Of a stretch of DNA of 64,000 bases, positions 6,307 through 44,735 are shown piece after piece. The position numbers and the translations under genes were made by a program. Within the stretch, counting starts at the first letter, position 1, and each line of letters starts with the position of its first letter. The notes beneath the pieces were generated by a model, which saw only the letters and a list, made by a program, of their open reading frames with translations, was not told where the DNA came from and made no database searches. The stretch comes from Candidatus Moraniibacteriota bacterium (GTDB lineage Bacteria; Patescibacteriota; Minisyncoccia; Moranbacterales; UBA1568): positions 329,745 to 393,744 of the forward strand of contig JBAQEZ010000003.1 of assembly GCA_049287005.1 (NCBI GenBank), read 5' to 3'.

Positions 6307-6367
6307 GGCTCGGGGGGCGTGTTTCGGATAATCATAAAACAATATAACCATGTAACCCTAAAAACAT

Positions 6368-6673: not shown

Positions 6674-6707
6674 ACATTTTTTCTCGCAGCGGCGAGCAGC
6701 ACATATT

Positions 6708-7142: not shown

Positions 7143-7287
7143 AAGGAACCATTTGTTTCATTCGTGTCGCCCGCCGGATCGGGATCCGCGATCCCGCCAA
7201 GGCGGTGGCGCGCAATGCTCTATTTTTTAATTTTAAAATTCAGACATTGTTGAGAAATGAGCAAGTGAGCGTTGGAAATTTTCATCT

Positions 7288-9783
7288 ATGGGAGGACTCG
7301 ATTTTAATAGTATTCTCATGCCATTGGCATGGATTTTCGCCTCCGTGGCGATCGTCAGCGGAGCATATCTGGTCATCCGTAGTTTTTTGCGTTTCCGTTT
7401 TCAAGTGAACCAATCGATTAATATGGATTTGGAAATGATTCGGGTGACACGGAAAGAAGCTCCCGAGGGAGGCAATCAGCAACAGCCGCCGGGCGCGGAA
7501 GCGTGGAAAGAAGAGATCTTGGCTATGGAGCAGCTCCTTTCGTCTCTGACGATGCTCAAGCCCAAGGGAGGCTTTCTGAAGCGATTATTTTTTGATACGC
7601 CGACTATCGTTTTTGAGATTGCGAATCCGTCCTTGAGTGAAGAAATATTTTTTTACCTTTCGGTACCGAAGCGTTTTCGTGAAAACGCGGAAAAACAGGT
7701 GCATAGTTTTTTCCCTCACGCGGTGATTGAAAAAGTTCCTGATTATACTGTTTTCGCTCCGCAAAGCCACACTGCCGTAGCGGTATTGGGACTGGCGCAT
7801 GGACACGCTCTCCCGTTGCGCACCTATCGGACCGTGGACGTCGATCCGCTCAATGAGATTTCCAACGCGCTCAGTAAATTGAATGCGATCGAGGAAGGAG
7901 CCGCTATTCAGATTTTGTTGGCGAGGTCGAATTCTCACTGGCGCGGAGAGGGAAAACATATCGCCCAGAGAATGCAAGAAGGAAAACGGTTGAAGGATGC
8001 AAGAAATCAATCGGTTTTACGTGAAGCCTCTGCTACTTTGGGAAAGGGGATGCTGAGAACATTGACGAGCGGGAAGAATAAAAGCAGCCCAGAGGAAACC
8101 AAACAAGTGAGTCTGACTCCTGAAGAGCAAGAGCTGGTGAAATCTATCGATGAGAAGGCTAACAAGGGGGCGTTTCGTGTGAATATACGTCTTATCGCAT
8201 CGGGAGCGACAGAGGAGCGAGCAGAAGAGATTCTCGGGCACATGGAAAATGCTTTTGGGCAATTCGAAAATCCGGAAGTGAACAATTTTCGTATCAAAAG
8301 ACGTTATAAAGAAAAACGGACCGTGTACGATTTCATTTTCCGCAATTTTGACGATGAAACGGAGATGATCCTGACCGTCGAGGAGCTGGCCAGCATTTTC
8401 CATTTCCCGATTTCTACGACAGCAACGCCGAAAATCAAATGGCTCAAAGCCGGAGCGGCTCCGCCGCCGGTCAATATCCCGCCGGAAGGGCTGCTGCTCG
8501 GCTATAATGATTATCGCGGGGTGAAAACGGATATTCGCATCACGGAGAATGATCGACGACGGCATATGTACGTCATCGGTCAGACGGGCGTGGGCAAATC
8601 CGTCTTTCTGCAAGAAATGGCCAAGAAGGACGCGGCGGCCGGCAAAGGTTTCTGCTTCATCGATCCGCATGGCGATGCCATCGAGGATATTCTGACGGCT
8701 ATTCCCAAAGAACGCGCGGAGGACGTAATCCTGTTTGATCCCTCCGATACGGAACGCCCGATCGGACTCAATATGCTCGAGTATGATCCTGCGCATCCGG
8801 AACAGAAAACCTTCGTCATCAACGAGATGATCGGCATTTTCGACCAGCTGTACGATTTGAAAGCGACGGGAGGGCCGATGTTCGAGCAGTATATGCGCAA
8901 CGCCATGCTCCTGATCATGGAGGATCCGGAGAGCGGATCGACGCTGATGGAGATTTCCAGGGTGCTGGCCGATGAGGAGTTCCGCAGATACAAGCTGTCC
9001 AAATGCAACAATCCGATCGCTTATGATTTCTGGACGAAAGAAGCGGAAAAGGCCGGCGGGGAAGCGGCTCTGGCGAACATGGTGCCGTATATCACCTCCA
9101 AGCTCACCACCTTCATCAGCAACGATATGATGCGGCCGATCATCGCCCAGCAGAAGAGCACGCTCAATTTCCGCGAGATCATGGACGGCAAGAAAATCCT
9201 GCTCGTCAATCTTTCCAAGGGCAAGATCGGTGAGATCAACGCGCGCCTGCTCGGCATGGTCATCGTGGGGAAGATCCTGATGGCGGCCCTGTCGCGGGTG
9301 GATACGCCGGAAGACGAGCGTACGGATTTCTATCTCTATATGGATGAATTCCAGAACGTCACCACCAATTCTATCGCGCAGATCCTTTCGGAAGCGCGCA
9401 AGTATCGGCTGGTGCTGACGATGGCGCATCAGTTCATCGCGCAGCTGAAGGAAGAGATCGCCAAGGCGGTCTTCGGAAACGTCGGATCGCTGGTCTCGTT
9501 CCGGGTCGGATCGGAAGACGGCGAGTTTTTAGAAAAGCAGTTCCTCCCGGTGTTTACGGCGCGTGATCTCATCAATGTGGATAACCGCAACTGTTTCGTG
9601 AAGCTGCTCATGAACAACGAACTGACCAAGCCGTTCAATATGAAAACCTATCCGCCGACGCACGGCAATCAGGAGGTGGCCAACGCCCTCAAGGAGCTCT
9701 CCCGCCTGCGCTATGGCCGCGATGCCACCATCGTCAACCGCGAGATCATGAGTCGCATCAAGCTGGCGGAAAAACCAGTCTAG
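7288..9783 (+). CDS. type IV secretion coupling protein-like P-loop ATPase (VirD4/TraG/TraD/TrwB family), membrane anchored
   Basis: N-terminal TM helix (PLAWIFASVAIVSGAYLVI). Walker A GQTGVGKS, followed by FIDPHGD as in the TrwB/VirD4 IDPKGD motif. Walker B-like FYLYMDEF. C-terminal TMAHQFIAQL matches the motif C/Q-L signature of coupling proteins. Confidence 0.75.
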   Translation: MGGLDFNSILMPLAWIFASVAIVSGAYLVIRSFLRFRFQVNQSINMDLEMIRVTRKEAPEGGNQQQPPGAEAWKEEILAMEQLLSSLTMLKPKGGFLKRLFFDTPTIVFEIANPSLSEEIFFYLSVPKRFRENAEKQVHSFFPHAVIEKVPDYTVFAPQSHTAVAVLGLAHGHALPLRTYRTVDVDPLNEISNALSKLNAIEEGAAIQILLARSNSHWRGEGKHIAQRMQEGKRLKDARNQSVLREASATLGKGMLRTLTSGKNKSSPEETKQVSLTPEEQELVKSIDEKANKGAFRVNIRLIASGATEERAEEILGHMENAFGQFENPEVNNFRIKRRYKEKRTVYDFIFRNFDDETEMILTVEELASIFHFPISTTATPKIKWLKAGAAPPPVNIPPEGLLLGYNDYRGVKTDIRITENDRRRHMYVIGQTGVGKSVFLQEMAKKDAAAGKGFCFIDPHGDAIEDILTAIPKERAEDVILFDPSDTERPIGLNMLEYDPAHPEQKTFVINEMIGIFDQLYDLKATGGPMFEQYMRNAMLLIMEDPESGSTLMEISRVLADEEFRRYKLSKCNNPIAYDFWTKEAEKAGGEAALANMVPYITSKLTTFISNDMMRPIIAQQKSTLNFREIMDGKKILLVNLSKGKIGEINARLLGMVIVGKILMAALSRVDTPEDERTDFYLYMDEFQNVTTNSIAQILSEARKYRLVLTMAHQFIAQLKEEIAKAVFGNVGSLVSFRVGSEDGEFLEKQFLPVFTARDLINVDNRNCFVKLLMNNELTKPFNMKTYPPTHGNQEVANALKELSRLRYGRDATIVNREIMSRIKLAEKPV

Positions 9784-9874
9784 AAAAAGAGCAGGGATCG
9801 AGAGTTATGAATCAGGAAAGAGACTCTTTTGATTTAAGGAAAGCCTTGCTTCGGGGATTTATGGGCGGCTCCCC

Positions 9875-9903
9875 TTGACTTTCTATGTCTTTTGGAGTAT
9901 AAT
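9875..9903 (+). promoter_or_regulatory. sigma70-like promoter: TTGACT, 17-nt spacer, TATAAT
   Basis: Near-consensus -35 at 9875-9880 and perfect -10 at 9898-9903, about 60 nt upstream of the ATG at 9965, which has a GAGGAG RBS. Confidence 0.6.
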
Positions 9904-9964
9904 TGCGATTTGTACCTTTTGAAACAACCGGCAATGGTGCCGATTCCTCCGAGGAGAATGCGAT

Positions 9965-10357
9965 ATGTTGAAAAACTGGCTGAAGGGTCTGATAATCGGT
10001 CTGATGATCATGGGTTGCACGCTGATTCTGATGTTTGCCAGTCTGCTCATCATTTGGATGGCGGGCGGCAATGAACTTTCTCTGCGCCAGCTTCTCATGG
10101 GCGTGCTGCTGAGCTGGTTCCTGGAGGTTGTGATCCTGATACCGCTCGGATCACTGCCGAGAGAGGTGAACAGGAACGCATTCCTGGCGCGTGCCATCTT
10201 CGTGTGGCTCCCGGTGTCCGGCGGGTGGTTCCTGATGCTCCAGGGGATGCCTCTCTGGGTTTTCCCCGCAGGCATGCTGATCTCCTCCACCTGCGTCGGT
10301 TACAACATGATGGTGACGCACGAGAAGAAAAAACAAGCGGCCAGCAGACGTCCCTAG
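9965..10357 (+). CDS. small integral membrane protein (130 aa), hypothetical
   Basis: Four predicted hydrophobic helices; strong promoter and RBS upstream. Confidence 0.5.
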   Translation: MLKNWLKGLIIGLMIMGCTLILMFASLLIIWMAGGNELSLRQLLMGVLLSWFLEVVILIPLGSLPREVNRNAFLARAIFVWLPVSGGWFLMLQGMPLWVFPAGMLISSTCVGYNMMVTHEKKKQAASRRP

Positions 10358-10539
10358 AGACGGAAAGAGATATGCCAAGAGCAGTGAGGGTAAATCCCGA
10401 TAGCTGCTCTTTGTTTTTTCTTTAAAAAGCTTATTACCAAACCTTTCATTATTGACTTATAACTATCAAAGAAGAGACCAAAGTTTTTGAGGAAACCGCC
10501 TCGAAAAATTGCTTTGCTATTGCGGTGGACGTATCTGCG

Positions 10540-13074
10540 CTATTGTTCCAGATTGAGTTTGAATGAGAGAAGGGAATGGGCGGTTGTGACGAGGGCTTCG
10601 CTGGTTTTCTCATTGACGGTAATGGTTTGGGCGTCAGCCAGCGTTTCGGAGAAGTACTGGGCGATGAGCGCGCCGTCTTGGTTCCAGACGAGGATGCGCT
10701 TATTGTCCGCGTCGAGAGCGTAGATGTTGGCTAAGTCTGGATTGGTGAAGAGGCTGGTGACAGAGAGCGGGGTGTTGGGAGACTCGAGGTTTTTCACGAA
10801 ACGGCCGCGAAAAACTGCCGAGACGGTTGTTCGGTTTTGTGCCAGGAAAATGGTCTCATGGATGGCCATTTTTGCACTGTCTTCGATAGCCAGCGTGTCC
10901 TTGAGCCAAGGGGATCCTGTACCAAAGCCGCCTTCTGCGCGTGGGAAACGGTAGATCTGATCCGTGGTTTCATCGAGGACATAGAGGTACGTGAGATAGG
11001 TGCCGATATCCTCTACGCGGGCGTCTGCGGGAAGTGCCAGCGTGTTCTCTGTGAACGTGTGGCTGATGGGACTCCAGGAAAACAGTGCGTTCGTATCGGT
11101 ATAGACAAAAATAAGACGCAAATCATCCATGGGAGAGGCGAATTTGATTGCTCCTTTTCCGGGCGGCAAGGGGTATTGTTTTTCGTCATCGGTACTGAGA
11201 ATATACGCAGAGGTTATGAGGTAAATCTCATCACTGAGTACGACGGACGCAATCACGGAATCTGGTACCGTGGCGATGGTAATAGGCGCGTTGGCTAAGG
11301 CATGAGCGTTTTTTTCGTCCTCGAGAGGGAAGACGGATGTTTCGCTGGGCGCTTGCGGGGTTTCTGCGATCGGCGTCGGACTGTTCTTCGTCGAGATATA
11401 TCGTGCCAGCAGGAGGCTGGTCACCAAAACAGCAGCAGCCAATAACCACAGCATGAGGGTGCGCTTTTCGTATCGGGTGCCGAGCTTTTTGAAGGAACGG
11501 AAGGAATGATTGAACAGATCCCGTGTGGTGCGCATGCCCTTTTCCCAGAGCGCACGCAGGATGAGCCAGCCTGCGTGAAATGTCTTCTGGAGAGCAGCAA
11601 AGGAAGCGGTGACTCGTTTCTTCCGGAATGTTTGAGGAGCAGGCGCTACGACAGAAATGTGCGTTATGGGGGGAGGAACACTGTTTTTTTGATAAAACGC
11701 AGCCAGTTTGTCTCTCATAAAAGGCGGAATGACTTCATCCTCGTCCGCAGCGATACGCGCGGACGCGTTGTGGACAAGCGCTTCCGTGACGGCAGGAGCA
11801 GGGAGAGTACTCTCTATTTTTTTTGCGGAGGACGGCTGTGAGAGCGGAGTCGGGATATGTGCCGTCTGCAGCAGGTTGTCCGGGCGAGTGTTTTCGGCAG
11901 TCGCTTGTGATTTTTTCGGCAGCCGGAGGGTAGCTATTTTTGACGCTGAAGCGACAATACCGTTGCGCAGTTGTTTGCGGAGAAAACGCGTCGTTTTCCG
12001 TGTTACGACGACACTCTGTCTCGAGAGAGCATACAAGAAGAGGAGACTTTGTTTTTTTCCTTTGCGGAGCAGTTTCCCTTGGGAAATGAAAAATGAGCCG
12101 AGGGCATGGGACGAGTCTTGCAACGAGAGTTTGGTGCGTTCGAGGAAGGGGTATCCTTGCGTGTGCCTGGGCGTGTCTCCTTGGACATAGATGTGGCCAG
12201 TTTTGGAATCGGTATATTCTTCCTCAGCATTATTACTCGCATGTTCCGTGGGTTGGCCGGCGGCTTGCTCTGTTGTGGGGCGTGGAACGAAAGCTTGCCC
12301 GCTGAAAACATTCGCGGTCGTTTCCACGGCCTTTTTTGACTCTTTGTGTGGCAGAGGAAGAGGCAGGCCTTCTTTTATATCAACGACGAGAGAACCGCCC
12401 ATATCGAGTTCGTTGATCAAGGCGGTACGGAGAAATTGAGCGAAACGTTCCGTATCCATACGGACAGCATTCTTTTCGAGGTCTTCCATGGGGAGTATGT
12501 CGAAAAGCTCCGGTGAGGTAAGAATAATTTTGTCTTGGGCCATGAGGCGACCGCTTGAGACCTCGACGAATGTTTTGATAGGGTGAATGTTGGATTCTTC
12601 GGAGGCCAGGCCGCTGCTGATTTCGGAAAAATTGTCACCACGCAAGAGCAGAATCTCCGCTTTGCCGGTAACGGAGAAATGGAGGTTATTTTTTTCGAGC
12701 ACGCCCAGCGCGCCGTGCAATTTGCCGAGCCACGCGATATTGCCGTGTTTGACGAGTTCGGCCAAAGCCAGATTGATCTTATGAAGCGCCGCTTCGAAAC
12801 TTTCGATGGAACCACGCCGGGGGTTGCTGAAGTATTCTTTTTTGGCGACAGAAGCGAGAAAATTGATGATGTAGGCCGAATCCTCGCTGTTTTCGGCAAT
12901 TTCAAAAACACCGATCAAAGAGCCGAGGGAGCTCCTGGTGACATTTTCGTCGCTGTAATTGAAAACCTTGACGAATGGTTCGATGGCACGACCGTTCGCC
13001 ACAAGGATTTCCGTTATAACTTTTTCTAATTCGATAGTCGGCCTGATTTTTTCCGGGCGTTTTTTCTCCAACAT
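10540..13074 (-). CDS. large hypothetical protein (844 aa): cytoplasmic N-domain, single TM (MLWLLAAAVLVTSLLLARYI), C-terminal beta-propeller-like repeats
   Basis: Long minus-strand ORF. Repeated YxLD/IYRF-type beta-strand repeats after the TM. Overlapping plus-strand ORFs are antisense shadows. Confidence 0.5.
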   Translation of the reverse strand: MLEKKRPEKIRPTIELEKVITEILVANGRAIEPFVKVFNYSDENVTRSSLGSLIGVFEIAENSEDSAYIINFLASVAKKEYFSNPRRGSIESFEAALHKINLALAELVKHGNIAWLGKLHGALGVLEKNNLHFSVTGKAEILLLRGDNFSEISSGLASEESNIHPIKTFVEVSSGRLMAQDKIILTSPELFDILPMEDLEKNAVRMDTERFAQFLRTALINELDMGGSLVVDIKEGLPLPLPHKESKKAVETTANVFSGQAFVPRPTTEQAAGQPTEHASNNAEEEYTDSKTGHIYVQGDTPRHTQGYPFLERTKLSLQDSSHALGSFFISQGKLLRKGKKQSLLFLYALSRQSVVVTRKTTRFLRKQLRNGIVASASKIATLRLPKKSQATAENTRPDNLLQTAHIPTPLSQPSSAKKIESTLPAPAVTEALVHNASARIAADEDEVIPPFMRDKLAAFYQKNSVPPPITHISVVAPAPQTFRKKRVTASFAALQKTFHAGWLILRALWEKGMRTTRDLFNHSFRSFKKLGTRYEKRTLMLWLLAAAVLVTSLLLARYISTKNSPTPIAETPQAPSETSVFPLEDEKNAHALANAPITIATVPDSVIASVVLSDEIYLITSAYILSTDDEKQYPLPPGKGAIKFASPMDDLRLIFVYTDTNALFSWSPISHTFTENTLALPADARVEDIGTYLTYLYVLDETTDQIYRFPRAEGGFGTGSPWLKDTLAIEDSAKMAIHETIFLAQNRTTVSAVFRGRFVKNLESPNTPLSVTSLFTNPDLANIYALDADNKRILVWNQDGALIAQYFSETLADAQTITVNEKTSEALVTTAHSLLSFKLNLEQ

Positions 13075-23904: not shown

Positions 23905-23977
23905 GCCACCTTAGCTCAGTTGGTAGAGCAACGCACTTGTAATGCGTGGGTCCTCGGTTCGAGTCCGAGAGGTGGCT
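23905..23977 (+). tRNA. tRNA-Thr (anticodon TGT)
   Basis: Manual fold: 7-bp acceptor GCCACCT/AGGTGGC, D-arm GCTCAGTTGGTAGAGC, anticodon loop CTTGTAA, T-loop TTCGAGT. Confidence 0.85.
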
Positions 23978-24031
23978 CAGTTTGAATAAAAGAGACGAGT
24001 TTGATAGGATGTGGTAGTCCTTTGTAAATAT

Positions 24032-24114
24032 GGGTAGGTGGTAGAGTGGTCTATTACAACAGACTGTAAATCTGTCGGCTTCGGCCTTCGGGGGTTCGAA
24101 TCCCTCCCTACCCA
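24032..24114 (+). tRNA. tRNA-Tyr (anticodon GTA) with long variable arm
   Basis: Acceptor GGGTAGG/CCTACCC, anticodon loop CTGTAAA, long variable arm, T-loop TTCGAAT. Confidence 0.8.
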
Positions 24115-24121
24115 CAAAAAT

Positions 24122-24151
24122 GAAAACAACTCCCGCAAGGGGGTTGTTTTC
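24122..24151 (+). terminator. rho-independent terminator after the tRNA-Thr/tRNA-Tyr pair
   Basis: GAAAACAACTCCCGCAAGGGGGTTGTTTTC hairpin. Confidence 0.7.
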
Positions 24152-24164
24152 ATTTGGGTAGGAG

Positions 24165-24298
24165 GAAGCCAACTGCTTGGCTTCCGAGAGGGATGAGAAG
24201 GCCGGAACGCTGTACGAGTTTGCCCATAGGGCAAGGCGAGTACCGTGAGGCGGGGTCGCGAAATTTTTCCGTCAGGAAAAATATTTGTGACCGAATCC
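24165..24298 (+). ncRNA. candidate structured RNA / repeat element, copy A
   Basis: Begins with hairpin GAAGCCAA-CTGC-TTGGCTTC, shares the block GTGAGGCGGGGTCGCGA with copy B, has a second hairpin ATTTTTCC-GTCA-GGAAAAAT, and ends TTGTGACCGAATCC. The terminal motif recurs at 24414-24430. Confidence 0.4.
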
Positions 24299-24497
24299 AT
24301 GTTAACGTGAAGGGCGTGAGTAGAAAGCGAGCGAGCGCAGCTTTCTGTGTGTAGCGCCAAGGCTCCGCGTCGGAGCGCGGAGGAATCCCTCTCGCTTACT
24401 GTTAGCAAATTATCTGTGACCGAATCCATTCCGCTGGACTTTTTCGTGAAAATCCTTACAATAGAAAAGTCACCGGAAGTAGATTTTTATTGAAACC

Positions 24498-24944
24498 ATG
24501 CAATTCAAAAAGAAACTTGTTTTTGAAACAGAATATTGGCGTGTTGGTTTGGCTGAAGAACAGACGTATCTTGGCTATTGTGTAGTTGCTTTGAAAAGGC
24601 AGGAAGGATTAAGGGGAGATTTGGTGGATCTTACACAAGAGGAGGCTATTGATTTTTTCAATGTGGTGAAGAAGTTTGAGGTAGCTCTTCGCGGCGCTTT
24701 TGATGCAACGATGTTTAATTGGTCCTGTCTCATGAACAATGCGTACCAGTTGCCGGATCCAAAACCACATGTTCATTGGCACGTGAAGCCACGATATAAT
24801 CATTCAGTTGAATTCGAAGGAGAGACCTTTGAAGATGTGAGATTCGGCCACCATTACACATTACTTGAAAATCTCAATCGGACGGTATCTGAGGAAGTGC
24901 AAGAAAAGATTATTGCAAAGATACAAGAGAGTTTGCCGTTGTAG
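24498..24944 (+). CDS. HIT (histidine triad) family hydrolase
   Basis: HVHWHV histidine-triad motif and HIT-like N-terminus. Its TAG stop lies inside the 5' end of the following tRNA-Thr gene. Confidence 0.75.
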   Translation: MQFKKKLVFETEYWRVGLAEEQTYLGYCVVALKRQEGLRGDLVDLTQEEAIDFFNVVKKFEVALRGAFDATMFNWSCLMNNAYQLPDPKPHVHWHVKPRYNHSVEFEGETFEDVRFGHHYTLLENLNRTVSEEVQEKIIAKIQESLPL

Positions 24945-25008
24945 CTCAGTTGGTAGAGCACGTCATTGGTAATGACGAGGTCATCGGTTCAATCCCGATC
25001 AACGGCTC
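24936..25008 (+). tRNA. tRNA-Thr (anticodon GGT)
   Basis: Acceptor GCCGTTG/CAACGGC, anticodon loop TTGGTAA, T-loop TTCAATC. Confidence 0.85.
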
Positions 25009-25187
25009 AAATAAGAGCAGAGGAGTGTTGATCATGTCGCTCGTCCGTCACGTCATTCGAGCAACGATAGTGACAAGTTGGGCGACAGAGTATTGACCAC
25101 GTCGTTCGCGAGCGACGGTGGTTGACGAAAGCAGTGTTTTCCAGTACAGTGAAAAAGCTTTGTAAACAGCTAGCAATCGAGAGGAAT

Positions 25188-25349
25188 ATGGGACAGATAA
25201 AAGATACGATAGTAAAACTCAAGTGTTCTCTGTGTAGCCGTATCACGCATTACACGAAACGCAATAAGAAAAAAGTGAAAGAAAAGCTTGCGCTCAGCAA
25301 ATATTGCCGTTTCTGTCAGAAGAACGCACCTCACACCGAGAGCAAATAG
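25188..25349 (+). CDS. rpmG: 50S ribosomal protein L33 (zinc-ribbon type)
   Basis: MGQIKDTIVKLKCSLCSRITHYTKRNKKKVKEKLALSKYCRFCQKNAPH has the L33 pattern with four Cys. Start reassigned to the internal ATG. Confidence 0.85.
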   Translation: MGQIKDTIVKLKCSLCSRITHYTKRNKKKVKEKLALSKYCRFCQKNAPHTESK

Positions 25350-25426
25350 TTCTCGGTTTTTGGTAATTTTGGTATAATGAATGTGGTTATGTAAGTTGTA
25401 TAACTTATAGTCACTATTCGTTATTT

Positions 25427-26077
25427 ATGTTGAGAGTAGAAGTAAAAGAAAAAGCGACTGCTCTGCGAGAACAGGGGTATTCGCTTAGTGAAATAAGTCA
25501 ACAGTTAAGTATTTCACAAAGTACCGCCAGCTTGTGGTTGAGGGGCATCAAACTATCTGAGAAAGCCAGGGGAAGAATAGATAGTCTGAGTGTTAGTGGA
25601 AGAAAAAAGGCTGTTGAGACAAATAGAAAAAAAAGAGCGGTAGAGGATATAGAAATAGCAGAAAAAGTAGAGAGGTATTTCTTGGGGCAACAAAAAATAG
25701 ATTCTAAAATTGCATGTGCTTTGTTATACTGGGGTGAAGGAACGAAGTATAGTGGCAATAAGTCTGTTTCTTTCATGAATGCGGATCCAGAAATGATAGG
25801 ATATTTTCTCCGTGCCTTCAGAAACTCCTTTTCTCTAGATGAAAAGAGGCTTAGGGCACTTATCCATTTGCATGAGTATCATGATGCGGACAAACAACTT
25901 AAATTTTGGTCAAATATAACAAAGATTCCCACCAGTCAATTCAATAAATCGTATCTCAAGAAGAACACGGGTAAGAGCGAAAAGGAAAATTATCCAGGCT
26001 GTATCAGCATTAGGTACTCTGATAATAAAGTCTATAAAGAATTGATGCTTATTATAGGAAAACTAGCGAAGATATAA
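25427..26077 (+). CDS. hypothetical HTH-domain protein (216 aa), low GC
   Basis: N-terminal HTH (GYSLSEISQQLSISQSTASLWLRG). Codon usage is visibly more AT-rich than neighbouring genes. It is inserted between rpmG and tRNA-Trp. Confidence 0.5.
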   Translation: MLRVEVKEKATALREQGYSLSEISQQLSISQSTASLWLRGIKLSEKARGRIDSLSVSGRKKAVETNRKKRAVEDIEIAEKVERYFLGQQKIDSKIACALLYWGEGTKYSGNKSVSFMNADPEMIGYFLRAFRNSFSLDEKRLRALIHLHEYHDADKQLKFWSNITKIPTSQFNKSYLKKNTGKSEKENYPGCISIRYSDNKVYKELMLIIGKLAKI

Positions 26078-26085
26078 AATAGAAT

Positions 26086-26156
26086 GCGAGTGTAGTTTAA
26101 CGGTAGAACAGCGGCCTCCAAATCCGCTAGCGAAGGTCCGACTCCTTCCACTCGTG
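26086..26156 (+). tRNA. tRNA-Trp (anticodon CCA)
   Basis: Acceptor GCGAGTG/CACTCGT, anticodon loop CTCCAAA. The T-loop TCCGACT has C at position 55. Confidence 0.75.
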
Positions 26157-26202
26157 CTAGAAATCATTTGGTATTTGTCATTTGAATTTTGATATTTCAA
26201 AT

Positions 26203-26274
26203 GGCCCTATCGTCTATCGGCTAGGACGCCAGGTTCTCATCCTGGTAAGAGGGGTCCGACTCCCCTTAGGGCTA
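26203..26274 (+). tRNA. tRNA-Glu (anticodon CTC)
   Basis: Close to E. coli tRNA-Glu in architecture: 3-bp D-stem GTC/GAC, anticodon loop TTCTCAT, T-arm AGGGG-TCCGACT-CCCCT, acceptor GGCCCTA/TAGGGCT. Confidence 0.75.
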
Positions 26275-26296
26275 CAACGAAGTTGAAGACATAAAA

Positions 26297-26478: not shown

Positions 26479-26556
26479 TTCTTATCAAGCCGATTCCAAA
26501 GTAATGTGGCTTGATTGGGTTCTTGAACAATATGCCATCGACAAGGAGAGAATGCT

Positions 26557-27885
26557 ATGAAGAGGATACCGGAACAGCAACGAAAGCCTTTGAGCAGAAT
26601 ATTGGTTATCGGTAGCGGTGGCCGTGAACATGCCATCGCGTGGAAACTGGCGCAAAGCCCAGAAGTGGAAGCGGTGTATGTCGCGTCCGGCAATGTTGGA
26701 ACGGCAAGGGAGCCGAAGGTACAGAATATTCCCATTACCGACATTGCGCTCCTCGCGGATTTTGCAGCGCAGAACAGTATCGATGTGACGGTGGTAGGAC
26801 CTGAAGCGCCATTGGTAGCGGGCATCGTGGATCTGTTTCGCGACCGTGGTCTGAAGATTTTTGGTCCGACGCAAGCAGCGGCGCAATTGGAATCCTCCAA
26901 GACTTTCGCGAAGCGTTTCATGAACCGTTGTCATATACCGACTGCGGACTACTGCGAATTCGCTTCCGCGGCATTGGCACATACCTACCTTGTCAGTCGG
27001 TCTCTTGACGATCTGCCGATTGTGGTCAAGGCCGATTGGTTGGCTGCGGGCAAAGGGGTGGTAGTCGCCAAGAGCCACCGTGAGGCGCACGACGCAGTCG
27101 ACATGCTTTTTGCCGCTACGACTGTGCCGGATCAGGAGAAACGGATCATCATCGAAAACTGCATTGCCGGCACGGAGGCGAGTTACATCGTCATGGTTGA
27201 TGGTCGGAATGTTTTGGCATTGGTGACGAGCCAGGATCATAAACGCCTCCTCGACGACAACAGGGGATTGAATACCGGCGGTATGGGAGCGATTTCTCCT
27301 GCGCCTATCATCACGTCTGCTATGAATACGCGCGTCATGCATGAAATTATCATGCCTGCGGTGCACAGAATGGCCGACGAAGGTATCCCGTACACCGGAT
27401 TTCTCTACGCGGGGCTGATGATCGATGCCGAGAACAACCCATATGTACTCGAGTTCAACTGTCGCCTTGGCGATCCGGAAACGGAAGTGATCCTGATGCG
27501 CTTACGGAGCGATCTGTATCCGCTCATCAGGCACGGCGCGAATGGCACGCTGGATTTGGCGAATGCGGAGTGGGATGATCGCGTAGCGCTCGGCGTCGTG
27601 CTGGCAGCTGCCGGTTATCCAGATAAACCGCGCAAGGGGGATCCAATTTCCGGGTTGCCGCGGGAAACCCCTGACTGCAAAGTCTTCCATGCCGGTACCG
27701 CCGAAGCGGGCGACAAGCTCGTTACGGCGGGCGGGCGCGTGTTGTGCGTGACGGTGCTTGGCGACGATATCGGCGATGCGCGGAGGCGAGCTTACGAAGC
27801 GGTGAAAACCGTTCACTTCGCAGGGGTGCAATACCGGAAAGACATCGGCAAATGTGCTTTGGCGGCAGCCGCTGATGTCAACTAA
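26557..27885 (+). CDS. purD: phosphoribosylamine--glycine ligase
   Basis: VLVIGSGGREHAIAWKLAQS N-terminus and an ATP-grasp core (GFLYAGLMI, EFNCRLGDPE). Confidence 0.9.
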   Translation: MKRIPEQQRKPLSRILVIGSGGREHAIAWKLAQSPEVEAVYVASGNVGTAREPKVQNIPITDIALLADFAAQNSIDVTVVGPEAPLVAGIVDLFRDRGLKIFGPTQAAAQLESSKTFAKRFMNRCHIPTADYCEFASAALAHTYLVSRSLDDLPIVVKADWLAAGKGVVVAKSHREAHDAVDMLFAATTVPDQEKRIIIENCIAGTEASYIVMVDGRNVLALVTSQDHKRLLDDNRGLNTGGMGAISPAPIITSAMNTRVMHEIIMPAVHRMADEGIPYTGFLYAGLMIDAENNPYVLEFNCRLGDPETEVILMRLRSDLYPLIRHGANGTLDLANAEWDDRVALGVVLAAAGYPDKPRKGDPISGLPRETPDCKVFHAGTAEAGDKLVTAGGRVLCVTVLGDDIGDARRRAYEAVKTVHFAGVQYRKDIGKCALAAAADVN

Positions 27886-28069
27886 GCGATTGGCAATGTC
27901 GTGACGGATTCCGTTGCGCAAGGGCGGGAGGTGGTAATATGCACCTTTCGCCCGATTTTTTTATACGATTCTTCCTTTTTGACAAAGAGGCCGTGAAGCC
28001 CTATCCTGTAAAGCTGGCTTTGAGCTGGTTTTCGTCCGTTAACAACCGAAAGAGAAAGCGAGGTCTGGA

Positions 28070-28963
28070 ATGACGACATTTCGGGAGCTGCTCCAAATGC
28101 AGTGGCACGCAAGGAAATTCGTCTGCCAGAGGCTCGTCGGTTATCCCGGCAATGGGCCGCAGGTGGAAAAATTCTGGAATGATAGCGATGAAAACGGAAG
28201 GATTGACGCCGCCAATATCACAATCGTGGAAGCGACCAGCGATATTGTTGGTTCCTACGCGTTGAACCTTGCCTTCTACATCGCGCACGGCGACGAGGGT
28301 ATGCATGCTTTGCGCCAGACTGCCTGGTATATTCGTTCCATCGCACCAGAAATTCTTATCATTCTCGACACCATGGATGTCGGCAATACTGATGCCGGCT
28401 CTGTGCGTATGGTATTTGAGTATTGCCAAGCAGACGCTATCATAGTGAATCCCTACCGCGGTATGGAAGCCGCGCAGCCCTTTCTGGATCAGAAAGACAA
28501 AGGTATTATCGTGCTCTGTCGCACGAGTACCGCAGGCGCAAGTGAGTTTCAGGATCTGATTGTGGGCGTTCCTGAAGGTAGCATCGAACCGCTTGTAGGG
28601 AGAGTCGGATCCGAAGTTCCAAAAACCATGCCGCTGTGGGAATATGTGGCGCATAGGGTATCACGGAATTGGAACGGGAATGGCAATTGTGCGCTCGTCG
28701 TCGGAGCTACGTATCCCCAAGAGCTCTCTCAAGTTCGAAGGATTGCCGGTGATATGCCGATGCTTATCCAGGATATCGGCTTTCGTGATGAAGACGTAGA
28801 AAAAACCGTCACAGCGAGTCAGGACAGTCGCGGCCAAGGGATAATCATCAATTCCCGCGGCAGTATATTCGTCATGAAAGGCTGGGATTTCGCTGAAGCG
28901 GCTCGTTCTGACGCGGAAAAGCTCCATAAGCTGATCAACCGATACTCACAAGAAGGAACTTAA
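28070..28963 (+). CDS. orotidine-5'-phosphate decarboxylase-fold protein (type-2 OMPDC-like paralog), atypical active site
   Basis: TIM-barrel OMPDC-like layout. ILDTMDVGNT stands where the catalytic LDxKxGDIGxT would be, with Met in place of the Lys. Ends NSRGSIFVMKG. Confidence 0.45.
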   Translation: MTTFRELLQMQWHARKFVCQRLVGYPGNGPQVEKFWNDSDENGRIDAANITIVEATSDIVGSYALNLAFYIAHGDEGMHALRQTAWYIRSIAPEILIILDTMDVGNTDAGSVRMVFEYCQADAIIVNPYRGMEAAQPFLDQKDKGIIVLCRTSTAGASEFQDLIVGVPEGSIEPLVGRVGSEVPKTMPLWEYVAHRVSRNWNGNGNCALVVGATYPQELSQVRRIAGDMPMLIQDIGFRDEDVEKTVTASQDSRGQGIIINSRGSIFVMKGWDFAEAARSDAEKLHKLINRYSQEGT

Positions 28964-29028
28964 ATATCGAGCAACCAGAAATCGATGATTCATCAACGCA
29001 GGTCCCTTGAACAGAAAAGGAAAAAGAC

Positions 29029-29823
29029 ATGAAAGCATATCCTTATGCAGATCGTTTGATCGTTGCGGCAGACTTTGTCCCGGTGACTAAATTCCCCGTT
29101 GTTGAAGTTCGCGCGAAGGTCATGAGCTTGGCCGAGCAGCTTGAAGGTCTCGGCGTCGGCTTGAAGCTGAATTCCGGTCTCCGAGTCATGGGCTATGATG
29201 TGCTGCGCGATATCACCTCGCTGGGATTGCACGGATTCGCTGACCTCAAGATCGTGGATATCGAAGAAACCATGGCAACTGACGGCAAATTTCTTGCTCA
29301 TTATCAGCCGCGTTACTTGACGGTGATGTGCAATGCCGGTGCTGTGGCGATTCGCGCCATCGCGAAGGAACTACCGAGTACGCGTGTCATCGGCGTCACC
29401 GTTCCCACCAATTGGGACGAAGCGACATGTCAGGGAGTTTATGGTTGCAGTATCCAAGAGGCAGTGATCCGTCTCGCAGGGATTGCCGCGGATGCTGATT
29501 TGCGCGACATCGTCCTCGCCGCCAAGGAAAACCAAGCAGTCCTGAAGTATGGAATTCTCGAGGGAGACAAATTCAAGCATCTCTGCTGCAACAACCCTGC
29601 CATACGTCCGGAATGGGGCAGGGTGAAACGCGACGATCAAGATCCGAAACGCGTTTCTACCGTCACGGGCGCTTTGCAAGCTGGCGCGCAGCGGCTCATC
29701 GTGGGGCGACCGATACTGACTGCGGTGAAGAATAATGAAGGGCTGCCGCAGAGTCCGAGGGAAGCGGTCATCAGAATCCTCGAAGAGATACATCAGTTTG
29801 TTGTTGAAGACAAGACATCCTGA
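29029..29823 (+). CDS. orotidine-5'-phosphate decarboxylase family protein (type 1)
   Basis: LIVAADF N-terminus, DLKIVDIEETM (DxKxxDI motif) and C-terminal LIVGRPI are the OMPDC signatures. Confidence 0.65.
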   Translation: MKAYPYADRLIVAADFVPVTKFPVVEVRAKVMSLAEQLEGLGVGLKLNSGLRVMGYDVLRDITSLGLHGFADLKIVDIEETMATDGKFLAHYQPRYLTVMCNAGAVAIRAIAKELPSTRVIGVTVPTNWDEATCQGVYGCSIQEAVIRLAGIAADADLRDIVLAAKENQAVLKYGILEGDKFKHLCCNNPAIRPEWGRVKRDDQDPKRVSTVTGALQAGAQRLIVGRPILTAVKNNEGLPQSPREAVIRILEEIHQFVVEDKTS

Positions 29824-29849
29824 AACCGACACGAACGAAAGGAAGTCCC

Positions 29850-30593
29850 ATGAGTATCAAGAAACCAGAAATTGTTTTAGGCGATGTTATCGCGACACTG
29901 AGACGCTGCGATGGGGTATACGAATGCCCGATGAGCACGGAAGGGAAACCTCTTGGCCCGCTGGTCGGTTATGCCGGCCAATACGAAGAGGGCGGAAAAC
30001 TCCTGAATTATGTGGGGTTCGTCTACTACAACGTCGGGAAGGGCGACCAGTGGTCGCATATCTCTTCGGGTTGGGCTATGCGTCATGCTCAGCTCCTGAC
30101 CAAGTATTCGCTTGATGTGTTGGTCGCTGCGCCGATGGGCGGTATCTCCTACATGTCGGTCCTCAAGCTCTATATTGATTGTTGCCGTGGCATCTTTGCC
30201 GAAAAGAAGGTGATCGAAGCGGCACAAGAGGGTAAACGGGAGAAATCCAAGCTCATTCTCGGCAGGTATGACATTTGCGAAGGCGATCGGGTTATCCTGC
30301 TCGAGGACATCGTCAATAACTTCTCGACGACGAAGCAGATGATCGAGCTTGTGGAAAATGCCGGCGGAAAAGTGCAGGCTATCGCTTGCGTGATCAATCG
30401 TTCTCTCAAGACCACGTACTGGGAGGCGCCTGCAAGAGATCCTCTTCCTGTCATCTGTTTGGAACACAGGCCGACGCCGCAATACCGGCAAGACGACCCG
30501 GTTGTGGCGGAATATATCGCTGTCGGAAACGTCATCATGAAGCCGAAAGACCGCTGGGCAGAACTGGTCGCAGCAGAAGCGGCATATGCCTGA
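29850..30593 (+). CDS. phosphoribosyltransferase (type I PRTase)-like protein, divergent
   Basis: RVILLEDIVNNFSTTKQMIELV resembles the PRPP-binding hhhhDD..TTG.T motif but lacks the Gly; follows the OMPDC paralogs. Confidence 0.45.
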   Translation: MSIKKPEIVLGDVIATLRRCDGVYECPMSTEGKPLGPLVGYAGQYEEGGKLLNYVGFVYYNVGKGDQWSHISSGWAMRHAQLLTKYSLDVLVAAPMGGISYMSVLKLYIDCCRGIFAEKKVIEAAQEGKREKSKLILGRYDICEGDRVILLEDIVNNFSTTKQMIELVENAGGKVQAIACVINRSLKTTYWEAPARDPLPVICLEHRPTPQYRQDDPVVAEYIAVGNVIMKPKDRWAELVAAEAAYA

Positions 30594-30756
30594 TTCTCAC
30601 GGACGGGACTGACAAAAGGGTACCGAGTGCATCGCACCACGGACCCTGTTTTTTTACCAAAAAATGCTGATACGAGTTATGATATACTTTATATATAATG
30701 ACTTTTATTTTTTCTTAAGCTAAAAAGCTACCAGCTAATCGCTATAAGCTACCCAT

Positions 30757-31470
30757 ATGTCCACTCTTATTTTTGATATCGAGACGGTCGGGGAGGATTT
30801 TGATAGCTTGGATGAGACCAGCCAAGATGTTTTGACGCGCTGGATCAAGAAGGAATCGGAGAGCGGAGGGGATTATACGGCGGCACTGGCGGATCTGAAA
30901 AACGGCATGGGCTTTTCGCCGCTCACCGGACAGATCGTGGCGATCGGCATCTATGACGCGGAGCGTGAGAAAGGCGCCGTTTATTTCCAATCGTCTTCCC
31001 AGGAGGAAGAAAAAAGTCTTGAGGGGCATGGCTGTAAATTGGTAGTGATGACGGAGAAAGAGATGCTGCGGAAATTTTGGAGCGTCGTGGAAAAGTATGA
31101 GACGTTCGTGACGTTCAACGGTCGGCAATTCGATGTGCCGTTCCTGATGGTGCGTTCGGCCATCCACGGCATCCGTCCAAGCAAGAATCTGCTCTCCAAT
31201 CGCTATCTCAATTCTCAACCAGGCAATGCGCGCCACATTGATCTCTTTGATCAGCTGACGTTTTATGGAGCCATGCGCAAGAAGGGGGGTCTGCATCTGT
31301 GGTGCCGGGCCTTCGGCATCGAAAGTCCGAAAACGCAGGGCGTGGATGGCGATGACGTGAAGGCGCTTTTTGAGAACGGCCAGAGCGCGGACATCGCTCG
31401 CTACAATGCCAGGGATCTGCGGGCCACGTACGAACTCTATACGTATTACACGCGTTTTCTCCAATTTTGA
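30757..31470 (+). CDS. DEDDy-type 3'-5' exonuclease (DnaQ/RNase T superfamily, PolB-exo/YprB-like)
   Basis: Exo I motif IFDIETVG, an internal acidic motif, and a C-terminal YNARDLRATYELY (Yx3D) motif. Confidence 0.65.
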   Translation: MSTLIFDIETVGEDFDSLDETSQDVLTRWIKKESESGGDYTAALADLKNGMGFSPLTGQIVAIGIYDAEREKGAVYFQSSSQEEEKSLEGHGCKLVVMTEKEMLRKFWSVVEKYETFVTFNGRQFDVPFLMVRSAIHGIRPSKNLLSNRYLNSQPGNARHIDLFDQLTFYGAMRKKGGLHLWCRAFGIESPKTQGVDGDDVKALFENGQSADIARYNARDLRATYELYTYYTRFLQF

Positions 31471-31552
31471 TCTTTGGGTTATTTCTCTTGTTTTTGGCTT
31501 TTTTTCTTGGTATACTTTCAATCATGTTCCGAATGATAGTAAACAATACGGT

Positions 31553-32629
31553 ATGCAAATTGAGAACGAATTAAAGGCTTTCAAGGCACGTCTCGATCCG
31601 AAAATCGGGGCGTATTTTGATACGGCGATTGCAAGAACGGGCAAAGAAGACGTGTTCGTAGCAGCTACCCTGGAGTATTCGCGCACCTTTATCCTCGCTG
31701 GCGGAAAGCGGCTGCGGGCAGCTTTCATGTACTATGGGTATCTGGGAGCGGGTGGCACCGAAGAGGAAAAAATCCTGGAGACTTCCATGAGCATCGAGTT
31801 GATCCATGCGTTCCTGCTCGTACATGATGATATCATCGACAAGGACGATACGCGGCACGGTGTGGCCACGCTCCATCAGCACTATGCGGACGCGGGGAAG
31901 CTCTTGTTTCATGGAAAGGATAACGCGCACTTCGGCAATGCTATAGCGATCATCATCGGCGATATGCTGGGCGCGTTCGGCAATGACATTATTTTTTCTT
32001 CCGCTTTTCCCTTGGAACAAAAATTCAAAGCGCTTACGAAACTTCAAGATATCGTTTCTTTCACCGTTATCGGGCAGGCGCAGGATGTCTATATGGAATA
32101 CATGGGTGAGGCGAGCGAAGCAGCCATCCTGGCCATGTATAGGAATAAGACGGCCAAGTACACTGTCGAGGGGCCGCTCTATCTTGGCGCGCTGCTCGCC
32201 GGAGCCTCTCAGGATCTGCTTGACGGATTCTCGGCGTATGCGGTACCGTTGGGTATCGCCTTTCAGATTCAGGACGATATTCTGGGGACTTTCGGCAATG
32301 CGAAGCGGCTCGGCAAGCCCGTCGGCTCTGACATCGCCGAGGGCAAGATCACGCTGCTGGTATCTCGGGCACTGCGGGATGGAACGGCAGAGCAAAAAAA
32401 ACGGATCCACGCGCTGCTTTCCCTGGGAGAACATCTCGAACAGCGGGACATAGAGGAATTCCGAGATATTATACGGGTGACGGGCGCTTTCGACAGTACT
32501 CGGGAGCTGGCAGCAGCATATATTGAAGAAGGCAAGCAGGCTCTCGGTGCGATACGCGCTATCTTGGATCCGCGCGCGTATGACTTTCTTTTTTCCATCG
32601 CAGAGTATATGATGGAACGTGAATATTGA
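31553..32629 (+). CDS. polyprenyl diphosphate synthase (trans-isoprenyl diphosphate synthase, IspA/GGPPS family)
   Basis: First Asp-rich motif LLVHDDIIDKDD and second FQIQDDILG. Start moved to the ATG at 31553 to remove overlap with the exonuclease gene. Confidence 0.85.
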   Translation: MQIENELKAFKARLDPKIGAYFDTAIARTGKEDVFVAATLEYSRTFILAGGKRLRAAFMYYGYLGAGGTEEEKILETSMSIELIHAFLLVHDDIIDKDDTRHGVATLHQHYADAGKLLFHGKDNAHFGNAIAIIIGDMLGAFGNDIIFSSAFPLEQKFKALTKLQDIVSFTVIGQAQDVYMEYMGEASEAAILAMYRNKTAKYTVEGPLYLGALLAGASQDLLDGFSAYAVPLGIAFQIQDDILGTFGNAKRLGKPVGSDIAEGKITLLVSRALRDGTAEQKKRIHALLSLGEHLEQRDIEEFRDIIRVTGAFDSTRELAAAYIEEGKQALGAIRAILDPRAYDFLFSIAEYMMEREY

Positions 32630-32641
32630 TTTTTCGCAACT

Positions 32642-33370
32642 ATGTCTTATCAGGAACCGACAACCGCACCAGTGGAGCTCCCACACCATATAGTCATCAT
32701 CCCGGATGGTAACCGGAGATGGGCGACTGAGCGTGGATTGGCAGCATGGGAGGGTCATGAGGCAGGAGCGAAAAATACGGAGAAGCTTATCCGTGCAGCA
32801 CAGCGTTTGGGTGTCAAGGAGATTTCTTTTTGGGGATCATCTTTGGAAAATCTCGTGAAGCGCCCCGTCCTCGAGAGCAAGGCTCTACTTCGTATTTATG
32901 GAACGTATTTCAAGCAGTTGTTGGAAAGCGAGGACATTCACAAGGACGAGGTCCGGATCCGTTTTATCGGGAGGTGGGAGGAACAATTTCCGGCCACGCT
33001 GAAGAAAATCATGCACGATTGCATTGAAGCGACCAAAAATTATAACAAGCGTTTCCTGAATTTTCTGTTGGCCTACAGCGGAGATGATGACATGCGCCAA
33101 GCCATCCAAAGGATAGCCGCAAGTCTCCCCGCTGGAGACACAGTGACAGACGCGGTCATCAAAGAAAACTTGATGACCAGGGATCTCCCGCCAGTCGACC
33201 TTCTGATTCGTACTGGGAGAGAACCCCATCTTTCGGCTGGTTTCATGATGTGGGATATAGCCAATACCCAGCTGTATTTTTCCGAGAAATATTACCCGGA
33301 TTTTGATGAGGCGGCTTTGCAGGAGGCTTTGGCTGATTATGCTTTGCGAGGGCGGCGTTTCGGGAAATAA
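32642..33370 (+). CDS. uppS: isoprenyl transferase (undecaprenyl diphosphate synthase, cis-prenyltransferase)
   Basis: HIVIIPDGNRRWA and the C-terminal RFG motif. Confidence 0.9.
   Translation: MSYQEPTTAPVELPHHIVIIPDGNRRWATERGLAAWEGHEAGAKNTEKLIRAAQRLGVKEISFWGSSLENLVKRPVLESKALLRIYGTYFKQLLESEDIHKDEVRIRFIGRWEEQFPATLKKIMHDCIEATKNYNKRFLNFLLAYSGDDDMRQAIQRIAASLPAGDTVTDAVIKENLMTRDLPPVDLLIRTGREPHLSAGFMMWDIANTQLYFSEKYYPDFDEAALQEALADYALRGRRFGK

Positions 33371-43236: not shown

Positions 43237-44735
<1,499 letters not shown>

Follow-up and report, generated by a model that had tools for sequence, protein, structure and literature searches.

A pyrF-pyrE-like locus of a Moranbacterales bacterium, probably caught in gene replacement: a degenerate and a complete OMP decarboxylase gene beside a gene for a glycine-less PyrE-like phosphoribosyltransferase

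The terminal pyrF-pyrE segment of uridine 5'-monophosphate (UMP) synthesis has several described forms. Orotidine 5'-monophosphate (OMP) decarboxylases (OMPDCs, PyrF) are found as type-1 proteins, such as the bacterial PyrF enzymes, and as type-2 proteins, orotate phosphoribosyltransferases (OPRTases, PyrE) include a Thermus/Helicobacter type, and bifunctional OMPDC/OPRTase proteins combine both. The OMPDC mechanism uses an Asp-Lys-Asp-Lys network and a gripper of Gln, Gly, and Arg for the phosphate. A locus that resembles all of these systems in part is located on a stretch of 64,000 nucleotides from a Candidatus Moraniibacteriota bacterium of the Moranbacterales (assembly GCA_049287005.1, contig JBAQEZ010000003.1, positions 329,745 to 393,744), which is called the window in the following. 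A preliminary description of this DNA had listed three open reading frames (ORFs), here named A, B, and C, and had suggested that two tandem paralogs with OMPDC fold and a phosphoribosyltransferase (PRTase)-like protein may carry out phosphoribosyl transfer and decarboxylation on other (deoxy)nucleotides or modified bases instead of standard UMP synthesis. All three ORFs, and likewise the motifs quoted for their products, were indeed present. The trio is nevertheless probably not a novelty of this kind, but an ordinary terminal pyrF-pyrE segment of UMP synthesis that was caught in gene replacement; gene displacement together with a lineage-specific PyrE-like family explains its anomalies better than a new pathway would. 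The features of the locus are as follows.

27922..27953, + strand: terminator-like hairpin after purD, 12 pairs, 8 of them G-C, followed by a T run (consensus scan)
27979..28007, + strand: promoter-like site, TTGACA, 17-nt spacer, TATCCT, 63 nt 5' of the start codon of A
28070..28963, + strand: protein A (297 aa), degenerate descendant of a type-2 OMP decarboxylase (pyrF), ORF intact, active site destroyed
28952..28982, + strand: junction repeat copy 1, decayed copy of the ribosome-binding site (RBS) and first codons of C
29029..29823, + strand: protein B (264 aa), type-1 OMP decarboxylase of a Patescibacteria subgroup, catalytic residues all present, probable PyrF
29842..29872, + strand: junction repeat copy 2, functional RBS and first 8 codons of C
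29850..30593, + strand: protein C (247 aa), PyrE-like type I phosphoribosyltransferase of a Patescibacteria-specific family, probable orotate phosphoribosyltransferase

Profile searches assigned A and B to the Pfam family OMPdecase (30.7 and 63.3 bits, respectively; cutoff, 27 bits) and C to Pribosyltran (27.2 bits; cutoff, 26.3 bits). A and B are thus both OMPDC-fold proteins, as had been proposed, while they are not recent tandem paralogs: BLASTP found no pairwise similarity between them (E = 5), and they belong to different OMPDC subfamilies, A to type 2 (TIGR02127) and B to type 1 (PRK00230/TIGR01740). A recent tandem duplication was ruled out by these two results. Of the two proteins, only B has the catalytic Lys intact, and C does not match a bona fide PyrE, so that the anomalies of the trio are real.

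Protein A still passes the curated equivalog model for type-2 PyrF, TIGR02127, with 118.4 bits at a cutoff of 110.6 bits; canonical relatives reach about 215 bits, for instance P0010 with 214.6 bits. Where solved type-2 OMPDCs read LDAKRGDIxxT, A contains the motif I98-L-D-T-M-D-V-G-N-T107, and in the alignment to these solved proteins, "iildtm..dvgnt" and "yalnlafy" of A are opposite to "vvlDaKrgDiadT" and "yKpNaaFF." The loss of the catalytic Lys, which had already been noticed in the preliminary description, was due to a deletion of two codons (LDT--MDVGNT), and it is accompanied by further losses in the active site: the beta-1 GLD motif reads RLV (G21R, D23V), the beta-2 Lys is replaced (K64A, changing YKPN into YALN), the TSN motif became TST (N154T), and the phosphate/pyrimidine gripper PGIGAQGG became QDIGFRDE. 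All 119 relatives listed, which are 47 to 59% identical to A and all from Patescibacteria, possess GLD, YKPN, LDAKxxDIGNT, CRTSN, PGIGAQGG, and SRG, and A alone deviates. It is mismatched in 19 of the 94 near-invariant columns of the family, which is the worst value (rank 1) of 120 sequences with a median of 1. Since the catalytic Lys, other residues of the network, and the gripper were lost, A is, as judged from the OMPDC mechanism, predicted to be unable to decarboxylate OMP, and the ability to bind a nucleotide has probably disappeared as well.

In A, the segments that form the barrel persist, as do some residues of the loops (SRG, VVGAT, DKG). With outgroup members of the family as the reference, A has kept 85% of the identity of its clade at variable columns and 82% at invariant columns; its extra divergence is thus about equal at both kinds of sites and points to relaxed selection. 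A search of two databases with 5.8 and 15 billion proteins found nothing closer to A than a protein of 59% identity, which is canonical throughout; synonymous sites are saturated between A and this nearest relative. The DxKxxD motif was absent from 9 of 150 type-2 representatives, and 5 full-length proteins among them contained clearly degenerate active sites. A conserved clade of dead type-2 paralogs with A as a member was considered and rejected, because in a distance tree, the closest neighbors of each degenerate copy were canonical sequences instead of A.

In protein B, the motifs D72-L-K74-I-V-D77-I-E-E-T81 and I-V-G-R227-P-I are present. B kept all residues that are invariant in 45 type-1 relatives (D15, K46, D72, K74, D77, T81, T127, R193, Q204, R208, R227, and P228), and none of the 29 invariant columns of its close family is mismatched. 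The catalytic array of the beta-1 Asp, the beta-2 Lys, and D-x-K-x-x-D is complete, which agrees with HMMER alignments to the solved proteins 3ldv, 3ru6, and 3tr2, and among the ligand-binding residues, T81, Q204, and R227 are present. The AlphaFold2 model of B (predicted local distance difference test [pLDDT] score of 96.2) has the (beta/alpha)8 fold of OMPDCs. The top 50 Foldseek matches of this model in the PDB were all OMPDC chains, including those of Vibrio cholerae, Campylobacter jejuni, Klebsiella pneumoniae, Escherichia coli, Bacillus subtilis, and Methanothermobacter thermautotrophicus, with TM-scores on the target of up to 0.90 (0.82 to 0.90) and root mean square deviations of 2.1 to 3.6 Å. 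The related KGPDC and HPS families were considered for B and rejected: no such NCBIfam model matched at E ≤ 0.1 and no such protein was among these 50 structural matches. The G+C content and that of the third codon positions (GC3) of B match those of the neighboring genes and give no compositional sign of a foreign origin. On these residues and this predicted structure, B is probably a working PyrF.

Protein C belongs to a family of hundreds of sequences. Its segment for phosphoribosyl pyrophosphate (PRPP), V-I-L-L-E152-D153-I-V-N-N-F-S-T-T161, has the hydrophobic strand and the acidic pair E152-D153 of a PRTase, but the canonical Gly-rich PRPP loop is replaced by N-N-F-S-T-T. The missing Gly had been seen before, and it is a trait of the whole family and not of this copy alone: at least 95% of 120 relatives of C have the loop E-D-x-x-N-N-F-S-T-T, N156, N157, T160, and T161 are invariant in an alignment of 36 family sequences, and 0 of 29 invariant columns of the family are mismatched in C. 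The structure model of C (pLDDT score of 94.9) has a type I PRTase fold, in which the NNF loop would run into the N terminus of a helix (H159-170), as canonical PRPP loops do. By fold, C gave 413 matches in the PDB at E ≤ 0.001, and all matches listed have a PRTase fold. The top match was 4paw, named "Orotate phosphoribosyltransferase" in the PDB, with a TM-score on the target of 0.71 to 0.75; it is the best solved relative of C by fold as well as by sequence profile, with E = 3.9e-10 in a search of the PDB with the C-family profile compared to 2e-6 for the best APRT. Of 19 PRTase models matched by C, TIGR01367 (pyrE_Therm) was the best (E = 9e-12). An hhalign comparison of the C family with seven Thermus-type PyrE-like sequences from Patescibacteria resulted in a probability of 98.9% and E = 1e-17 over 146 columns, and paired FAEKK with YAEK, EDIVNNFSTT with EDVINTGGSV, and NRS with NRG.

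For the gene context, a scan of one genome per species yielded 80 C-family loci, nearly all from metagenome-assembled genomes of Patescibacteria, and these loci were annotated with hidden Markov models built from alignments made in this analysis. The genome with the window is itself outside this collection of species representatives, and the best match to C in it is 66% identical. An OMPDC gene is located within 400 bp of the C gene at 51 of the 80 loci, and at another 11, an N-terminal OMPDC domain precedes C in an in-frame fusion, yielding proteins of 480 to 550 aa. The remaining loci are one with an OMPDC gene farther off, 5 that are cut by the end of the contig, and 12 without a detected OMPDC. 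Among these 12, the upstream neighbor passes the Pfam OMPdecase cutoff in two cases, is just under it in one, and in one contains the same variant motif, DHQKAGxDIP. The OMPDC partner of C may be of type 2, of type 1, or of a B-like type 1, and DxKxxD is intact in the OMPDC of every locus with adjacent or fused genes save two with a fragmented OMPDC. At locus L006, the order is pyrC-pyrB-pyrF-C-pyrD, and at L025, it is pyrC-pyrB-pyrF-C. In other Patescibacteria, the slot downstream of pyrF is held by a Thermus-type PyrE-like gene with canonical loop, and because both occupy the same slot, the Thermus-type PyrE-like genes and the C family look like functional alternatives. The gene context in relatives, an examination of which had been proposed in the preliminary description, points to a PyrE role and not to a new pathway, and its most economical interpretation is that the C family is probably the OPRTase of these organisms.

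Two groups of relatives are observations in their own right. The OMPDC-fold variant directly upstream of C genes at L013 (7217-7960), L061 (509-1231), and L075 (3421-4269), of which 2 of 3 pass the Pfam OMPdecase cutoff, combines D-H-Q-K-A-G-x-D-I-P, with an altered Asp-Lys-Asp spacing, and A-P-G-F-x-x-Q-G-G. The fusion ORFs (482 to 548 aa; L018, L024, L037, L048, L049, L056, L064, L071, L077, L079, and L080) contain an N-terminal OMPDC domain with DxKxxD and a C-terminal PRTase domain with the NNFST loop and are thus UMP-synthase-like.

The history of the locus can be deduced from a relative of the same phylum, Moraniibacteriota (L005/L009), where A, C, a PolB-type exonuclease gene, a polyprenyl synthase gene, uppS, infA, and the gene for S13 follow each other in the same order as in the window, without B. 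The identities of L005 to the window are 54% for A, with all motifs intact, 66% for C, and 84% for the exonuclease; the synteny does not reach purD. In the window, B is bracketed by a direct repeat of 31 nt (23 of 31 positions identical; spacing, 890 nt), copy 1 of which extends over the last 4 codons of A, including the stop codon, into the beginning of the spacer between A and B. This repeat is the sole such pair in positions 28800-30000, and a pair equally good occurred in 1 of 300 shuffles of the region and in 0 of 2,000 shuffles of the junction segments. The syntenic relative with intact A and without B and the repeat around B together indicate that B was inserted at the ancestral A-C junction and that the 5' end of C was duplicated by this event. 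A 194-aa ORF upstream of the closest homolog of B (L002) was regarded as a possible decayed remnant of A and rejected, since it has no similarity to A and no NCBIfam hit.

The three genes of the window may form a single transcription unit, which is suggested by the strong terminator-like hairpin after purD (26557-27885), the gene upstream of A, and by the promoter-like site before A. The number of terminator-like sites in the region overall is at the level expected by chance, and the stem at 27922..27953 is by far the strongest of them; it is predicted to be the upstream boundary of the A-B-C unit. The promoter-like site agrees with the consensus in 10 of 12 positions, which is a prediction and not functional evidence.

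Taken together, the locus would have started as an operon of A and C, coding for a type-2 OMP decarboxylase followed by a PyrE-like phosphoribosyltransferase of the Patescibacteria type. The gene for the type-1 OMP decarboxylase B would then have been inserted exactly at the A-C junction, with duplication of about 31 nt that contain the RBS and the 5' end of C. Today, C would condense orotate and PRPP to OMP and B would decarboxylate OMP to UMP, while A, redundant once B was present, would drift under relaxed constraint, with its open frame still heading the operon.

Dead and live OMPDC genes are also found side by side elsewhere. At L007/L008 and L019, a dead type-1-like gene is followed by a live type-1 gene and then by C. 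The dead paralog (L007 4300-5136, L008 2074-2910, L019 6311-7117), upstream of the canonical type-1 OMPDC gene and the C-family gene, contains the motifs ALN, WDGRLAGIAST, and IGKPIS and no catalytic motif. L088 and L091 are mirror images or analogs of the arrangement in the window. At L088, a type-1 OMPDC-fold gene without DxKxxD (2086-2829) precedes a gene for a 382-aa type-2 protein with DCKRGDLGAT (3024-4169) and C, and at L091, the dead type-2 gene P0446 (4001-4948) precedes a gene for a 435-aa fusion of an N-terminal PyrE and a C-terminal OMPDC domain (5108-6415). Two more degenerate type-2 OMPDC-like genes, P0301 (L089 4001-4918, beside greA) and P0431 (L092 897-1751, beside the L21 gene), stand alone, with neither a PRTase nor a live OMPDC gene on their short contigs.

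Several observations weigh against a mere replacement of A, and they need to be considered together with what else A may be. Its frame is still open, both indels are in frame, and a Shine-Dalgarno-like GAGG is present. When neutral substitution was simulated from an intact ortholog, 25% of the runs were free of stop codons at 10% amino acid divergence and 8% at 20%. The A ORF remained intact despite about 15 to 20% of extra divergence, and the resulting probability of about 0.08 that no stop arises under neutrality, which considers substitutions only, is not strong; as an argument for retention, the open frame is weak. The dead paralog of L007/L008 and L019, which is of the Falkowbacteria type, has an identity of 66% between two species and a ratio of nonsynonymous to synonymous substitution rates (dN/dS) of about 0.21 compared to 0.19 for its live neighbor, both approximate, with synonymous sites near saturation. 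This indicates that some dead OMPDC copies are maintained, so that A might be maintained too, and the recurrence of such pairs across lineages hints at retention for a reason. While C makes OMP and B makes UMP as outlined above, A may thus be a retained noncatalytic pseudoenzyme with OMPDC fold, for instance, a regulatory or scaffold partner of B and/or C, or its frame may have been kept open since a premature stop would be polar on B and C. The intact ORF, the in-frame indels, the Shine-Dalgarno-like and promoter-like sites, the independent recurrence at L007/L008/L019, L088, and L091, and the dN/dS ratio would all fit, as would the fact that streamlined genomes of Patescibacteria usually shed dead DNA. 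Such a role of A seems rather unlikely nevertheless, because the extra substitutions are spread about evenly over invariant and variable columns, as expected for a loss of constraint and not for remodeling, and because the changes V20Q/G21R, T125I, and L130R in core strands look destabilizing. Moreover, no relative shares the dead state, the nearest one being canonical throughout, and the other degenerate type-2 copies form no clade with A. Roughly, a relic is three times as probable for A as a retained pseudoenzyme. A different chemistry on the OMPDC barrel of a neofunctionalized A would be in agreement with the persisting barrel segments, with SRG, VVGAT, and DKG, and with the intact ORF, but A is a singleton in both large databases, with no family sharing its new residues, three acidic residues are now located in the phosphate-gripper loop (QDIGFRDED), and the divergence was blind to the kind of site; neofunctionalization should hardly be expected at all. 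A more far-reaching proposal, that the C family is a distinct OPRTase-like class across Patescibacteria, with its NNFST loop and new hood, and that in addition the recurring dead OMPDC-fold genes (A and those of L007/L019, L088, and L091) are maintained noncatalytic partners instead of debris, is unlikely to hold in both of its parts.

With respect to the assigned activities, the displacement of one pyrF by another also has to face that B and C fail curated thresholds. B is below the equivalog cutoffs (PRK00230, 94.5 versus 193 bits; TIGR01740, 50.6 versus 92.3 bits), which P0150, a more typical member of the B subgroup, passes for TIGR01740 (97.4 versus 92.3 bits). In B, the Ser of LTS is an Asn (PTN/LTN), the Pro of DIPxT is a Glu (DIEET), and an insertion of the two residues "DP" follows the conserved, pyrimidine-binding Q204. 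These three differences are shared with P0122, the closest relative of B (68% identical), the gene of which immediately precedes a Thermus-type PyrE-like gene with the canonical loop EDILTTGGS. C is under every curated PyrE cutoff (TIGR01367, 45 versus 150 bits; TIGR00336, 21.9 versus 106.8 bits), its PRPP loop is without Gly, and its N-terminal hood (residues 1 to 55) aligns to no PyrE, with the C-terminal tail unaligned too, so that an orotate specificity of C is indicated by the gene context alone. Finally, tblastn found no pyrB, pyrC, pyrD, pyrG, or canonical pyrE in the 64-kb window, which was the range of this search; the preliminary description had likewise seen no pyrB, pyrC, or pyrD near the trio, with purD as its neighbor. 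All this could mean that the trio, or at least B and C, acts on a base other than orotate: C may transfer the phosphoribosyl group to a base that is carboxylated or modified, and B may decarboxylate the product to a modified or salvage nucleotide instead of UMP. The hood and tail of C, both unlike characterized PyrE proteins, NNFST in place of T-G-G-S/T, the deviating residues of B and its closest relative, the failed thresholds, and the absence of pyrB, pyrC, and pyrD from the window would be compatible with such an activity. Complete de novo nucleotide synthesis has been reported to be absent in 93% of Patescibacteria genomes (bioRxiv 10.64898/2026.06.21.733656), and pairs of an OMPDC gene and C are widespread in Patescibacteria despite this. 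A non-orotate substrate is very improbable nevertheless. The C family is interchangeable with respect to three OMPDC lineages, all with canonical DxKxxD, is fused to an OMPDC domain in 11 species, and holds the PyrE slot in operons with pyrB, pyrC, and pyrD, the slot that elsewhere downstream of pyrF is filled by the Thermus-type PyrE-like gene with its canonical loop. The invariant residues of B are exactly the OMP-binding and catalytic set, and no additional tailoring genes accompany the trio among the window ORFs with Pfam annotation. The alternative nucleotide pathway proposed before is thus disfavored by the complete active site and predicted fold of B, the PyrE slot of C, an A that would be the displaced original pyrF, with its syntenic ortholog intact in the relative without B and with the repeat around B, and the purine de novo genes of the window, with which this genome appears to make nucleotides de novo.

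These observations have consequences beyond this locus. Automatic annotation is wrong or vague for 2 of the 3 genes: A, although dead, still passes the curated model and is for this reason labeled "orotidine-5'-phosphate decarboxylase," and C is named only "phosphoribosyltransferase" or "hypothetical." In surveys of pathways in Patescibacteria that are based on KEGG or eggNOG, a dead pyrF could thus be scored as present and the PyrE step be overlooked, which bears on the debate over which ultrasmall bacteria can synthesize nucleotides themselves. The C family is a defined target for biochemistry, namely, whether the Gly-less loop binds PRPP and whether orotate is the base. The locus also provides a clean and datable gene displacement in situ with a preserved insertion scar, and it flags a recurring arrangement of dead plus live OMPDC genes, one instance of which is under purifying selection. 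New are the divergent PyrE-like family, the clear insertion scar, and the recurring dead-OMPDC arrangement, and this novelty is modest; the searchable literature contained nothing relevant on the C family, on orotate enzymes of Patescibacteria or Parcubacteria, on dead OMPDC paralogs, or on HP1257.

The window contains a bacterial 16S rRNA gene, tRNA genes, and genes for ribosomal proteins, which indicates that it is chromosomal. The 16S rRNA gene is full-length (43238-44734) and unlinked to the other rRNA genes, as the 64 kb contain neither a 23S nor a 5S rRNA gene. The tRNA genes for Thr, Tyr, Thr, Trp, and Glu form a cluster of five at 23905-26275, which is interrupted by a gene of the HIT family (24498-24944) and by that of a 216-aa helix-turn-helix protein (25427-26077). 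The region at 822-13074 may be type IV secretion or conjugation-like: a gene for a TraG/TrwB-like type IV coupling protein (7288-9783) is flanked there by ORFs of 881, 928, and 844 aa, all three very large and without Pfam hits. Antisense ORFs of 259 to 395 aa at 26485-27366, 31571-32758, and 30742-31521, all on the - strand, over the purD, polyprenyl synthase, and exonuclease genes are most likely noncoding shadows of these sense genes. The following features are located farther downstream.

54240-55634, + strand: purB-like adenylosuccinate lyase gene
56394-57944, - strand: guaA
58209-58928, + strand: purN-like formyltransferase gene
59056-61950, + strand: purL-like gene for formylglycinamidine ribonucleotide synthase
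62545-63936, + strand: ORF of 463 aa without Pfam hit

Genes of purine de novo synthesis are thus scattered over the window, which is unusual for Patescibacteria, mostly without de novo nucleotide synthesis. With purD, purB, guaA, and the purN-like and purL genes, the genome seems to belong to the minority of the Patescibacteria that have this ability.

When the three proteins are compared with the described systems, B is closest to the bacterial type-1 PyrF proteins (PDB 3ldv, 3ru6, 8cso, 1eix, and 1dbt), with which it has in common the (beta/alpha)8 fold, the Asp-Lys-Asp-Lys-Asp array, and the Thr, Gln, and Arg residues. It differs from them by an identity of only 20 to 26%, by DIEET for DIPNT, PTN for LTS, a 6-residue "ILEGDK" insertion, and the "DP" insertion after the Gln. 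A is homologous to the type-2 OMPDCs (PDB 3qw3, 4mjz, 3r89, and 2f84 from Plasmodium), with E = 6e-25 for 3qw3, and by position its ortholog is the intact gene of L005, but A has lost the Asp of beta-1, the Lys of beta-2, the catalytic Lys, the Asn of TSN, and the Gln-Gly-Gly gripper.

C is similar to the Thermus/Helicobacter-type OPRTases (TIGR01367; PDB 4paw, Helicobacter pylori HP1257) in its type I PRTase fold, in the alignment of the "AEK" loop, the acidic E-D, and the "NR" motif, and in the position of its gene directly downstream of pyrF. In contrast to these proteins, its loop is N-N-F-S-T-T instead of (N/T)-T-G-G-S, and only C possesses an N-terminal hood with conserved G-Y-Y-E-C-P and GPLVGYAG and a tail with PTPQYRQDDP...KPK..W, both without a Thermus-type counterpart, while the CPLC...GKG tail of the Thermus-type members is absent from C. 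The order of a type-2 OMPDC and a PRTase in the bifunctional OMPDC/OPRTase proteins (NF004034 PRK05500; Leishmania UMP synthase, PDB 3qw4) is that of A and C and of the 11 fusions, and PDB 3qw4 was matched by both A and C. The genes of the window differ from this system since they are separate, since the type-2 OMPDC is dead, and since a type-1 OMPDC gene lies in between, and the 11 fusions of Patescibacteria differ by a PRTase domain of the NNFST family instead of a canonical PyrE. As a course of events, A-B-C corresponds to a displacement in situ by a homolog of another subfamily, a pattern seen generally in evolution, which does not define a family: a distantly related isofunctional gene is inserted beside the resident one and the resident decays, for which L007/L019, L088, and L091 may be compared.

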